Positions 13,341 through 16,031 of a stretch of 64,000 nt of DNA are shown here, one piece after another. How positions within the stretch are numbered: position 1 is the stretch's first letter; every line of letters begins with the position of its first letter. The position numbers are program-made. The stretch lies in NCBI RefSeq assembly GCF_055900595.2, contig NZ_CM148325.1; one strand, 5' to 3'.

Positions 13341-16031
13341 TGAATAATCGAGTCCACCAGGGCCACTTAGCCCGTAAACGCTTCGGGCAAAACTTTCTTA
13401 ACGATCAGTTCGTGATCGACAGCATTGTTTCTGCCATTAACCCGCAGAAGGGCCAGGCGATGGTCGAAATCGGCCCCGGTCTGGCGGCATTGACCGAACC
13501 GGTCGGCGAACGCCTGGACCAGCTGACGGTCATCGAACTTGACCGCGATCTGGCGGCACGTCTGCAAACGCATCCATTCTTAGGCCCGAAACTGACTATT
13601 TATCAGCAGGATGCGATGACCTTTAACTTTGGCGAACTGGCTACGAAAATGGGCCAGCCGCTGCGTGTTTTCGGCAACCTGCCTTATAACATCTCCACGC
13701 CGTTGATGTTCCATCTGTTTAGCTATACTGATGCCATTGCCGACATGCACTTTATGTTGCAAAAAGAGGTGGTGAATCGTCTGGTTGCAGGACCGAACAG
13801 CAAGGCGTATGGTCGATTAAGCGTCATGGCGCAATACTATTGCAACGTGATCCCGGTGCTGGAAGTTCCGCCGTCAGCCTTTACACCACCACCCAAAGTG
13901 GATTCCGCCGTCGTGCGCCTGGTTCCTCATGCAACGATGCCTCACCCGGTCAAAGATGTTCGCGTGTTGAGCCGCATCACCACCGAAGCCTTTAACCAGC
14001 GTCGTAAAACCATTCGTAACAGCCTCGGCAACCTGTTTAGCGTCGAGGTGTTAACGGGAATGGGGATCGACCCGGCGATGCGAGCGGAAAATATCTCTGT
14101 CGCGCAATATTGCCAGATGGCGAACTATCTGGCGGAGAACGCGCCTTTGCAGGAGAGTTAACGATGATCAATTCGCCCCGAGTGTGTATTCAGGTTCAAA
14201 GCGTCTACATTGAGGCACAATCTTCACCTGATAATGAACGTTACGTTTTTGCTTATACCGTAACCATACGCAATCTGGGGCGAGCGCCAGTGCAGTTGTT
14301 GGGGCGTTACTGGCTGATCACCAATGGCAATGGCCGTGAAACCGAAGTCCAGGGCGAAGGAGTGGTTGGCGTTCAGCCACTTATCGCGCCTGGCGAAGAG
14401 TACCAGTACACCAGCGGTGCAATCATTGAAACCCCGCTGGGCACCATGCAGGGTCACTACGAAATGATCGATGAAAATGGCGTCCCCTTCAGCATCGACA
14501 TTCCCGTATTCCGACTCGCCGTTCCCACACTCATTCATTAAAAGAATATGGCGACATACCTTATTGGCGACGTTCATGGTTGTTACGATGAACTGATCGC
14601 ATTGCTGCATAAAGTAGAATTTACCCCTGGGAAAGATACCCTCTGGCTGACAGGCGATCTGGTTGCGCGCGGACCGGGTTCGCTGGATGTTCTGCGCTAT
14701 GTGAAATCCTTAGGCGACAGCGTACGTCTGGTGCTGGGCAATCACGATCTGCATCTGCTGGCGGTATTCGCCGGGATCAGCCGCAATAAACCGAAAGATC
14801 GCCTGACACCGCTGCTGGAAGCGCCGGATGCCGACGAGCTGCTTAACTGGCTGCGTCGCCAGCCTTTGCTGCAAATCGACGAAGAGAAAAAGCTGGTAAT
14901 GGCCCACGCAGGGATCACGCCGCAGTGGGATCTGCAGACCGCCAAAGAGTGCGCACGCGATGTAGAAGCGGTGCTGTCGAGTGACTCCTATCCCTTCTTT
15001 CTCGACGCTATGTACGGCGATATGCCAAATAACTGGTCACCGGAATTGCGGGGGTTGGGAAGACTGCGTTTTATCACCAACGCCTTTACCCGTATGCGTT
15101 TTTGCTTCCCGAACGGTCAACTGGATATGTACAGCAAAGAATCGCCGGAAGAAGCCCCTGCCCCACTGAAACCGTGGTTTGCGATTCCTGGCCCTGTCGC
15201 TGAAGAGTACAGCATCGCCTTTGGTCACTGGGCATCGCTGGAGGGCAAAGGTACGCCGGAAGGTATTTACGCGCTGGATACTGGCTGCTGTTGGGGCGGG
15301 ACATTAACCTGCCTGCGCTGGGAAGATAAACAGTATTTTGTCCAGCCGTCGAACCGGCATAAGGATTTGGGTGAGGGAGAGGCGGTCGCGTCTTAAATCC
15401 CGTCGAGCATAAAATCTAATGCTCCTTTAATCAAAGTTCGGTGCGCGCTGGCATCGCAAAATTTCGTTCCCAGCGTGTTAACTGGAACAGTTGCAGTCTC
15501 ATGCGTCATGAGCACATATTCTTTGCCGTCTACCAGTAAAAGGATTGGGTTAAGCCGTTCTGGTGGGCGAATATGGCTAAATCGTTCAATAGGTGTTAAT
15601 GGATTAACGATACGGCGATTAATCTCACCAATAATGTCGCTGGTAACATCGATAACAAAGGGCAACGCGGCGTTCCTGCCGCGACTGCGGTATACCGTAA
15701 ATTGCATCGCTAGAAGTTCCGGTACTCATCAGAGAAACATCCGGTTTCATCAGCCAATTGATTTAACGCAGCGATAGCTTCTGCATTCTCTTCACGCCAA
15801 CGTGTTGCTGCATGTTTTTTAAGTTCAGCATTGAGCGCAACCGTAAGGGTGGCGCTCATATTTAAGCCTGCATCACGAGCGCGATTGACTAACTCACGGT
15901 CGACGGTGACGGTCACACTTTGTGTGGTACGTTTTGCAGTCATGATATCGTGCTCCTGTACAATTTATACGTCTTGTATACACGGATATCTGCACGTATC
16001 AGTGATGCCGGAATTCTGATATACAAACTTA

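Follow-up and report, generated by a model that had tools for sequence, protein, structure and literature searches.

The window analyzed in this study is a stretch of 64,000 nucleotides of contig NZ_CM148325.1 (NCBI RefSeq assembly GCF_055900595.2). In the region considered here, apaH, the last gene of the rsmA-apaG-apaH run, converges on the ccdA and ccdB genes, and folA lies upstream of ccdAB in the same orientation (Table 1). The RefSeq annotation of the identical locus agrees with the ORFs of the window. The ccdA stop and the ccdB start (position 15707) are separated by a gap of 2 nt, and the folA stop is the complement of positions 16029-16031. The spacer between folA and ccdA contains three palindromes, TGTACA (15957-15962), TGTATACA (15975-15982), and GATATC (15985-15990), and, from the analogy of F ccd, is the presumed site of the ccd promoter and operator. 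The last approximately 22 bp of this spacer (16007-16028) are common to ccd-free genomes. An Rfam scan of the window gave no match in 14500-16600.

Table 1. Features of the apaH-folA region, with window coordinates.
Feature	Coordinates	Strand	Basis
apaH (diadenosine tetraphosphatase), 282 aa	14548..15396	+	ORF list, Pfam metallophosphatase, RefSeq annotation
TTAA tetramer with both stop codons	15393..15396		Sequence read directly
ccdB toxin gene, 104 aa, full length	15393..15707	-	Pfam PF01845 E=7e-30, profile 1-101 of 101
Islet-specific DNA, ~609 bp	15398..16006		Junction comparison; absent from REP-type (K-12-like) genomes
Weak hairpin with a 6-bp stem (GAGCAT-8 nt-ATGCTC), inside ccdB, shortly after the apaH stop	15405..15424	+	Fold z=-0.96
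ccdA antitoxin gene, 77 aa	15710..15943	-	Pfam PF07362 E=1e-26, ORF list
Spacer from folA stop to ccdA start, 85 bp (presumed ccd promoter and operator)	15944..16028	-	Palindrome search, terminator scan, comparison with ccd-free genomes
folA (dihydrofolate reductase), 159 aa	16029..16508	-	Pfam PF00186 E=3e-60, annotation

The ccd pair belongs to the CcdAB type II toxin-antitoxin systems: the CcdB domain is full length, and CcdA is encoded immediately upstream on the same strand. The products are a putative gyrase poison and its putative neutralizing antitoxin. In the alignment, CcdB of the window is 94-95% identical to CcdB of O157:H7 and ST131 and 36% identical to F-plasmid CcdB. The module resembles F-plasmid CcdA/CcdB in its Pfam families, the antitoxin-then-toxin operon of closely abutting genes, the Gly-Ile-stop C-terminus, and the short palindromes upstream of ccdA. 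Distinct from F ccd, and beyond the low CcdB identity, it has an Asp at the equivalent of F W99, is chromosomal, and shares its stop with a housekeeping gene.

Positions 15390-15399 read gtcTTAAatc. The apaH stop codon TAA occupies 15394-15396, and on the opposite strand the ccdB stop codon TAA lies across from TTA at 15393-15395. T15393 doubles as the third base of apaH Ser282 (TCT), and A15396 is paired with the third base of ATT, the codon of the last CcdB residue (Ile104). The first-pass annotation of this DNA had claimed that the two stops overlap on opposite strands in TTAA and share three bases. The overlap stood when the stop positions were re-inspected, but by their coordinates the codons have two bases in common (15394 and 15395). 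With the stops included, the coding regions of apaH and ccdB overlap by 4 nt (15393-15396). An identical 4-nt overlap is annotated in RefSeq for O157:H7 and for strain Z0117EC0005 (apaH 49..897, ccdB 894..1208). TTAA and 14 nt on its ccdB side were identical in all ten ccd-type sequences inspected, including those of E. albertii and of genomes with a ccdB pseudogene. Of the 12 possible single substitutions in the tetramer, according to the substitution table, only T15393C and A15396G leave both stops and both proteins as they are. By the same table, T15393A or T15393G would lengthen CcdB by 41 codons. The invariance of TTAA reflects descent from one event together with selection on the apaH stop, not repeated origin.

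Four tetramers, TTAA, CTAA, TTAG, and CTAG, are the only ones that can end two convergent genes, and on their account the distribution of convergent overlap lengths rises visibly at 4 nt (PMC2174442). Convergent overlaps in E. coli were counted as 58 in one study (PMC2174442) and as 75 in another (PMC4161906). With its TTAA tetramer and two ORFs that both have family support, apaH/ccdB has exactly the geometry of this class. As a class, the 4-base stop/stop overlap is common and ordinary, not unusual. In a 64-kb stretch of a closely related strain, which matches most of the window, apaH/ccdB was the sole overlapping pair among six convergent gene pairs. Such overlaps have a published origin model in which a stop codon moves within resident genes (PMC4161906), whereas in apaH/ccdB one partner was acquired horizontally and joined at the stop. 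The overlap is real, ordinary, and already known, being visible in every RefSeq annotation of a ccd-positive genome. A search of the open-access literature on ccdB and apaH, outside which Wilbaux et al. (2007) and Mine et al. (2009) fell, found no text describing it.

The TTAA tetramer is very probably the left junction of a chromosomal ccdO157-type CcdA/CcdB islet that replaces the short convergent apaH-folA spacer. The module sits in the folA-apaH spacer between intact core genes, and its identity to the O157:H7 module is 97.5% for ccdB, 98.7% for ccdA, and 97.6% for the upstream spacer. The ccdO157 islet of O157:H7 (Wilbaux et al., 2007; Mine et al., 2009) occupies the same locus, where genes in the order folA-ccdA-ccdB likewise converge on apaH, and has the same 632-bp stop-to-stop interval and the same TCTTAAATCCCG junction, with a nucleotide identity of 97-99% between the window and an O157:H7 genome. 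The window allele differs as a minor variant, since identity to it over 1.2 kb reaches 99% in only eight of 5,426 genomes; the architecture is the same throughout. Passages of three later articles attribute the ccdO157 islet and the plasticity of the folA-apaH spacer to Mine et al. (2009) (PMC3184786, PMC7167474, PMC7232551). In itself the finding matters little: work published in 2007-2009 already described the islet, where it lies, and how it has decayed in E. coli, and the overlap geometry is a textbook class. The added value is anatomical and modest: the junction lies exactly at the apaH stop, both proteins are intact to their last residues, and the arrangement is shared with E. albertii.

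The alleles of the spacer were counted in 5,426 complete E. coli genomes, in which a ccd junction was scored when at least 80% of a 101-nt probe was covered. The ccd allele was present in 2,026 genomes (approximately 37%) and the REP allele in 2,858 (53%). The remaining 542 genomes (10%), which complete the sum of 5,426, matched only up to the apaH stop. In all four genomes sampled from these 542, DUF4291 and an unknown ORF lay in place of ccdB, beside a ccdA remnant. The same three classes (REP, ccd, and a large piece containing a remnant of ccdA) were reportedly distinguished by Mine and colleagues in 2009. The REP spacer of K-12 fills the same apaH-folA stop-to-stop interval and is an allelic alternative to ccd; it differs in being 77 bp long, with a strong hairpin (z=-3.2) and no genes, and it goes with a 280-aa ApaH with the tail GEAAAS. 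REP-type genomes carry approximately 52 bp with a REP hairpin where the islet DNA sits. In apaH, the REP and ccd alleles are distinguished by a 6-nt indel and three substitutions within the last 27 nt; therefore, the allelic block extends slightly into apaH. Elevated divergence of the core genes beside the islet would be a sign that the alleles have long coexisted, but apart from the 6-nt indel block, which lies within the final 49 nt of apaH, mismatch density was flat.

The first-pass annotation had taken the stop overlap as a sign of precise insertion and had proposed a comparison of the apaH-folA junction with ccd-free strains. The overlap alone says nothing on insertion. The conclusion is nevertheless borne out by the junctions in ccd-free genomes, the ApaH tail, and the CcdB end. 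All three alleles part immediately after TCTTAA of apaH. Sequence is common with ccd-free genomes up to ...GCGTCTTAA(A) and divergent right after, that is, exactly after TCTTAA(A), and homology is back approximately 22 bp before the folA stop. Among the ApaH tails of 80 other species, the GEGEAVAS form of the ccd allele was that of Enterobacter, Superficieibacter, and other Enterobacteriaceae, so the ccd allele keeps the ancestral tail. On the opposite strand, CcdB of the window ends with ...DFMLDGI, at the native last residue of its family.

These features place the joining of the islet to the core genome precisely at the apaH stop codon. apaH has kept its ancestral coding sequence and its own TAA, and ccdB its full native C-terminus (104 aa); the ccdB stop is read on the complement of three apaH bases, the final one of Ser282 and the two with which the apaH stop opens. 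A microhomology of 4-5 nt, TTAA(A), may have mediated the join. Another possibility is that the stop of the donor itself, which is TGA in the nearest plasmid relatives, was lost and that apaH bases took its place. The plasmid ccdB relatives end with ...DFMLDG[IV] at 104 aa and a TGA stop, and have no homology past the stop. A donor search of 72,556 plasmids yielded only ccdAB of 65-73% identity (Hafnia, Klebsiella, and Pantoea) and no donor. An empty site, queried as a synthetic ancestral ApaH tail joined to the K-12 REP spacer, was absent from all 5,426 genomes; the best match, at 93.9% identity, was the K-12 allele.

A transposon- or IS-type insertion at a TTAA target was considered and rejected, as there is neither a target-site duplication nor a transposase or integrase gene. 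No direct repeat, of TTAA or otherwise, was found at the right junction. The islet consists only of ccdA, ccdB, and the 85-bp spacer, and its inverted repeats are limited to palindromes of 6-9 nt in the promoter spacer. The integration of chromosomal TA modules was still described as unelucidated in a 2020 review (PMC7167474). To this question the locus adds one small data point, namely a clean junction where possible microhomology spans no more than 4-5 nt and a transposition signature is lacking.

A further statement of the first-pass annotation was that the two convergent transcripts necessarily overlap in their 3' ends. The geometry implies this if both genes are expressed, and the absence of terminators strengthens it. 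ccdAB is transcribed in O157:H7 Sakai and regulated by growth phase in that strain (PMC2241611). A scan of 14900-16700 found no intrinsic terminator, no T-run of four or more was present within 400 nt past either stop, and the folds past the two stops had z-scores of -0.96 and +0.63. A bidirectional intrinsic terminator between apaH and ccdB is not present, there being no intergenic space, and no terminator after folA was found by scanning and folding. The hairpin at 15405-15424 was rejected as an apaH terminator because of its weak fold, the lack of a U-run, and the lack of a call in the terminator scan; its stem is broken in E. albertii and in the sequences L011, L092, and L094. Since no intrinsic terminator lies past either stop, each transcript must end inside the opposing gene. 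Hairpins are present in the apaH-folA spacer of other genera. The spacer hairpin, in other genomes either a REP or a bidirectional terminator, would have gone from the ccd allele, and RNA of the apaH operon would run antisense into ccdB and folA/ccdAB RNA antisense into apaH. These RNAs would most likely be ended by Rho-dependent termination or by processing, leaving complementary 3' ends. Past the ccdB stop, the RNA is rich in C and poor in G, with a C/G ratio of 1.4-1.9 over 180 nt; judged by this composition, Rho-dependent termination at apaH/ccdB, with a corresponding extent of RNA overlap, is plausible. The locus is a natural test case for the ending of convergent transcripts without a terminator in E. 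coli.

Two other readings concern what the overlap is and how it arose. Decayed ccdB is frequent in E. coli, in many of which the gene at the folA-apaH locus is frameshifted, truncated, or internally stopped, and CcdB of the window departs from the alignment majority at four positions (F15L, I35N, R45H, and A78T). The overlap could accordingly be an ORF-calling artefact, with ccdB really ending earlier or being a dead remnant, and no two functional stops coinciding. However, the ccdB ORF of the window is uninterrupted over 104 codons and matches the whole Pfam CcdB profile. The solved CcdB chains in the PDB align with it end to end through the last residue (Vibrio fischeri CcdB, E=3e-15; F CcdB, E=4e-9), and its end is that of the plasmid homologues. 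An artefact is thus extremely improbable. The second reading reverses the polarity of the event: ccd with the ancestral ApaH tail would be the ancestral state, and the REP allele would have arisen when the islet was deleted and a REP element gained, so that TTAA would mark an old resident instead of an insertion into a K-12-like site. This reading is favored by the distribution of the ApaH tails, as the ccd allele has the ancestral tail and the REP allele the derived 6-nt deletion, and by the lack of any genome that combines the ancestral tail with REP among the 5,426. It is also favored by E. albertii and a second Escherichia lineage, which carry ccd with the same junction and a gap of 632-633 bp. 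However, ccd was found in the spacer of no genus outside Escherichia (78 non-Escherichia loci among the 80 listed from genome contigs), and therefore an insertion occurred at some point. REP-type hairpins occur in the spacers of Salmonella and Citrobacter, and two Citrobacter spacers resemble that of K-12 (caggaa..aggccggataagacgcg...), which argues for the REP spacer as the older state; the REP allele is also present in another Escherichia lineage (L012). We therefore regard the reversed order as unlikely, and it alters the history, not what TTAA is. The junction event is old, because the same junction is found in E. albertii; it arose once in an Escherichia ancestor and has been inherited since. 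Identity between E. coli and E. albertii is 94-95% for ccd and 91.5-93.3% for apaH and folA. The sharing with E. albertii could also be due to interspecies homologous recombination instead of vertical descent. E. fergusonii, E. marmotae, and E. ruysiae could not be identified by name among the 80 loci, so the Escherichia allele phylogeny is incomplete.

The first-pass annotation had named transcriptional interference as a possibility, and a functional overlap was weighed against the ccdO157-type junction as well. Through antisense RNA, RNase III cleavage, or polymerase collision, complementary 3' ends might couple expression of the apaH operon to that of ccdAB, for example by lowering the distal toxin message relative to that of the antitoxin, and selection would maintain TTAA for that reason. 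The missing terminator between the two units, the growth-phase regulation of ccdAB in Sakai, and the invariant junction in ten of ten sequences are in line with such a role. Against it, selection on the apaH stop alone explains the invariance, given the two of 12 changes that are silent for both genes and a sampled divergence of only 3-8%. Loci with a pseudogene of ccdB or ccdA (E. albertii, L005, L092, and L094) conserve the junction just as well, and 53% of E. coli lack the whole module. The 2009 work of Mine and colleagues is said to have reported neutral evolution of ccdB, which also counts against this role. Nothing that we could read from the sequence argues for a regulatory role of the overlap, and we consider such a role very unlikely. 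The more specific idea, in which the 3' end of the ccdAB message is permanently antisense to read-through from the apaH operon and transcription of this operon sets the CcdB:CcdA ratio, by polymerase collision or by RNase III cleavage of the toxin-distal end, is highly improbable; if true, it would link a gyrase toxin to a housekeeping operon whose last gene, apaH, encodes Ap4A hydrolase. A further observation against a functional overlap is that ccdB of the ST131 type stops 30 nt earlier, with no other change.

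The ccdA/ccdB module of the window is the chromosomal ccdO157-type toxin-antitoxin islet reported from E. coli O157:H7 between folA and apaH, and the apaH/ccdB overlap is the left edge of this already published islet. The same genes are annotated by RefSeq, with unchanged relative coordinates (apaH 49..897, CcdB 894..1208), in an identical locus and in an O157:H7 genome.

Coordinates, stop codons and Pfam matches of the genes at the apaH-folA locus (stops from a mechanical ORF list)
Gene	Coordinates	Strand	Product	Stop codon	Pfam match
apaH	14548..15396	+	282 aa	TAA, 15394-15396	metallophosphatase, as ApaH should give
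ccdB	15393..15707	-	104 aa	complement of TTA, 15393-15395	CcdB, full-length, E=7e-30, profile 1-101 of 101
ccdA	15710..15943	-			CcdA, E=1e-26
folA	16029..16508	-			dihydrofolate reductase

The coding regions of apaH and ccdB overlap by 4 nt (gtcTTAAatc, 15390-15399). The first-pass annotation placed the TTAA correctly, as the ORF coordinates and RefSeq agree; however, the stops have two bases in common (15394 and 15395), not three. The ccdB TAA is built of apaH bases, namely the third base of Ser282 and the TA of the apaH stop. TTAA was invariant in 10/10 ccd-type sequences compared. This conservation needs no special explanation, because only 2 of the 12 possible single substitutions (T15393C and A15396G) keep both genes properly terminated and both proteins unaltered; of the four positions, three lie within or adjacent to the apaH stop.

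The apaH-folA spacer of 5,426 complete E. coli genomes fell into three classes that sum exactly to the total. The ccd allele was found in 2,026 genomes using a 101-nt probe centred on TTAA (at least 80% covered) and in 2,021 using a 1.2-kb probe. The REP allele, scored by coverage of the K-12 junction probe, was present in 2,858 genomes. In the remaining 542, the ccd probe matched no further than the final base of the apaH stop codon; in all four such loci examined (L004, L007, L008, and L009), the place of ccdB was taken by a DUF4291 gene together with an unknown ORF and a truncated ccdA. In this third allele, the DUF4291 gene and the ORF (155 aa, no Pfam match) lie on the apaH strand, a ccdA remnant of 45-59 aa adjoins folA, and the left junction likewise falls exactly after the apaH TAA. 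In L008 (E. coli strain 2313; 2530-2591 of the locus), the apaH tail contains a 7-nt duplication (GGCGGGAGGCGG) that causes a frameshift; the TAA is missed, and apaH becomes 39 nt longer and extends 8 nt into the DUF4291 gene. The IncY plasmid pPK5074-69kb (NZ_CP072804.1, 22334-29417; L097) carries a piece made up of a chromosomal-type folA, a ccdA remnant next to it, and an unknown ORF, with IS26 and IS1 on its sides and blaTEM-1 adjoining; the plasmid-search matches H116, H117, and H119 grouped with it. This piece looks like a mobilised part of the third allele and, if so, would provide an additional DHFR gene copy. The PLSDB record CP054241.1, an 834-kb "plasmid", contains apaH-ccdB-ccdA-folA at 288703-289363 (97.6% identity) and is probably chromosomal DNA deposited under a plasmid label.

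Comparison with ccd-free strains located the junction: homology breaks directly after the apaH stop. All three alleles share the sequence ending in GCGTCTTAA and then continue as ACACAGCC in K-12, ATCCCGTC in the ccd allele, and CGAATTAC in the third allele. On the right side, the ccd/REP alignment resumes approximately 22 bp before the folA stop (GCCG.AATTCT..ATACAAA); islet-specific DNA therefore spans approximately 15398-16006 of the window. The "precise insertion" claimed in the first-pass annotation is supported by this comparison, with ApaH and CcdB complete to their last residues; the insertion left both genes undisturbed.

The ApaH tail of the ccd allele (GEGEAVAS, 282 aa) recurs, identical or in near variants, in Enterobacter, Superficieibacter, Klebsiella, Raoultella, and many more genera, in which apaH and folA are always convergent neighbours 34-150 bp apart. 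The K-12 tail (GEAAAS, 280 aa) is accordingly the derived form and the long tail the ancestral one. Tail and spacer allele were completely linked in the 5,426 genomes (window 15370-15396 versus 872-891 of the comparison locus L001), REP occurring with the short tail and the ccd and third alleles with the long tail; no recombinant of the two was found among them. The best match to a synthetic query joining the ancestral tail to the REP spacer was, in any genome, the K-12 allele at 93.9% identity. CcdB ends in DFMLDGI at residue 104, and its nearest plasmid homologues end at the same residue in DFMLDGV (IncFII plasmid of Klebsiella aerogenes) and DFMLDGI (Hafnia alvei plasmid). The alignment to solved CcdB structures reaches their last residue, and F CcdB also ends in Gly-Ile. 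With a product that ends at the usual last residue of the family, ccdB thus meets the core genome precisely at its stop codon.

Insertion of the transposon type is unsupported, because no direct repeat of TTAA or of any other sequence was found at the right end, the ORF list of the islet contained no mobility gene, and its only inverted repeats were 6-9-nt palindromes upstream of ccdA. The join may have used TTAA(A) as microhomology. Alternatively, it may have replaced a donor TGA; unlike the window ccdB, the plasmid homologues stop at TGA, and similarity is absent past that stop. The integration route of TA systems is described as still unelucidated (PMC7167474). Convergent genes whose stops overlap by four nucleotides form a described class, in which the tetramers TTAA, CTAA, TTAG, and CTAG cause the distribution of overlap lengths to jump at 4 nt (PMC2174442). 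E. coli has 58 convergent overlaps by one count, with a predicted intrinsic terminator in only approximately 20% of the genes concerned (PMC2174442), and 75 overlapping pairs by another (PMC4161906). In a closely related strain, a 64-kb stretch matching most of the window contains six convergent pairs, of which apaH/ccdB alone overlaps. The only unusual aspect of this overlap is that one partner was horizontally acquired; the overlap was therefore made by the join and not by stop-codon drift.

Among the loci compared, no genus outside Escherichia carried ccd in the apaH-folA spacer. The module is present in E. albertii NBRC 107761 and in L011, a second divergent genome of Escherichia, with the same 632-633-bp interval and the identical string GTCTTAAATCCCGTCGAGCAT. 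Identity of the window to E. albertii is 94-95% for ccdB, ccdA, and the spacer upstream, against 91.5% for apaH and 93.3% for folA; the islet is thus approximately as diverged as its flanks. This would fit a single old insertion that was passed on together with the locus; recombination of the entire block between species could also account for the sharing with E. albertii. In NBRC 107761 (L010, 3846-4396), ccdA carries a frameshift and ccdB has ATA as its start codon, with the apaH junction intact. Decayed ccdB alleles of E. coli were frameshifted, interrupted by an internal stop, or truncated at codon 94 (an O25b:H4 genome), in agreement with the published picture.

The K-12 spacer contains a REP hairpin (-32.5 kcal/mol, z=-3.2 against shuffled sequences), and the Raoultella and Enterobacter spacers contain strong hairpins, in places beside A- or T-rich stretches, that look like bidirectional terminators. 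A consensus scan of 14900-16700 in the window found no terminator, and the 400 nt following each stop contained no run of four or more T. Beyond the apaH stop, the RNA folded no better than shuffles (z=-0.96); values past the ccdB stop and in the folA-ccdA spacer were z=+0.63 and z=-0.46. A 6-bp hairpin at 15405-15424 is disrupted in E. albertii and three more genomes. In O157:H7 Sakai, ccdAB is transcribed, and its level increases 5.3-fold as cells enter stationary phase (PMC2241611). The first-pass claim that the transcripts must overlap is sound, because terminators are absent past both stops and ccdAB is transcribed; the RNA overlap probably extends over tens to hundreds of nucleotides, not four, and read-through from folA into ccdAB is likely. 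RNA reading on past the ccdB stop is rich in C and poor in G (C/G 1.4-1.9 across the first 180 nt), as is that past the apaH stop in its first 78 nt only (C/G 1.47); this compositional hint would agree with Rho-dependent termination of antisense RNA that is not translated. Transcriptional interference between apaH and ccdB is a possibility, but the frequent decay of ccdB speaks against its importance.

The plasticity of the folA-apaH spacer has been reported (Wilbaux et al., 2007 and Mine et al., 2009, as summarised in three later papers), with ccd in O157:H7 and REP in about half of isolates (PMC3184786), REP sequences where ccd is absent (PMC7167474), and a 77-bp spacer without ccd in K-12 (PMC7232551). 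Our analysis makes small anatomical additions only: a junction exactly at the stop, two proteins complete to the last residue, no transposition signature, and an arrangement common to E. albertii.

Elsewhere in the window, the gap between rihC (38156-39076) and ispH (from 40375) is occupied by a 402-aa ORF (39096-40304, minus strand) that has a hydrophobic N-terminus and matches no Pfam family. Its RefSeq counterpart is an "XAC2610-related protein". Present in 9/5,426 complete E. coli genomes, it is a single-gene islet in a core spacer, much rarer than ccd. Strain Z0117EC0005, which matches the window most closely at the ccd locus, has nothing colinear with the regions 48928-52137 and 55953-59731; judged from synteny with the annotation of that strain, these regions should lie in its fimbrial-pseudogene, espX1, and IS421/mokC neighbourhood. 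Rfam matches were sok at 59811-59963 and tpke11 at 61348-61425.
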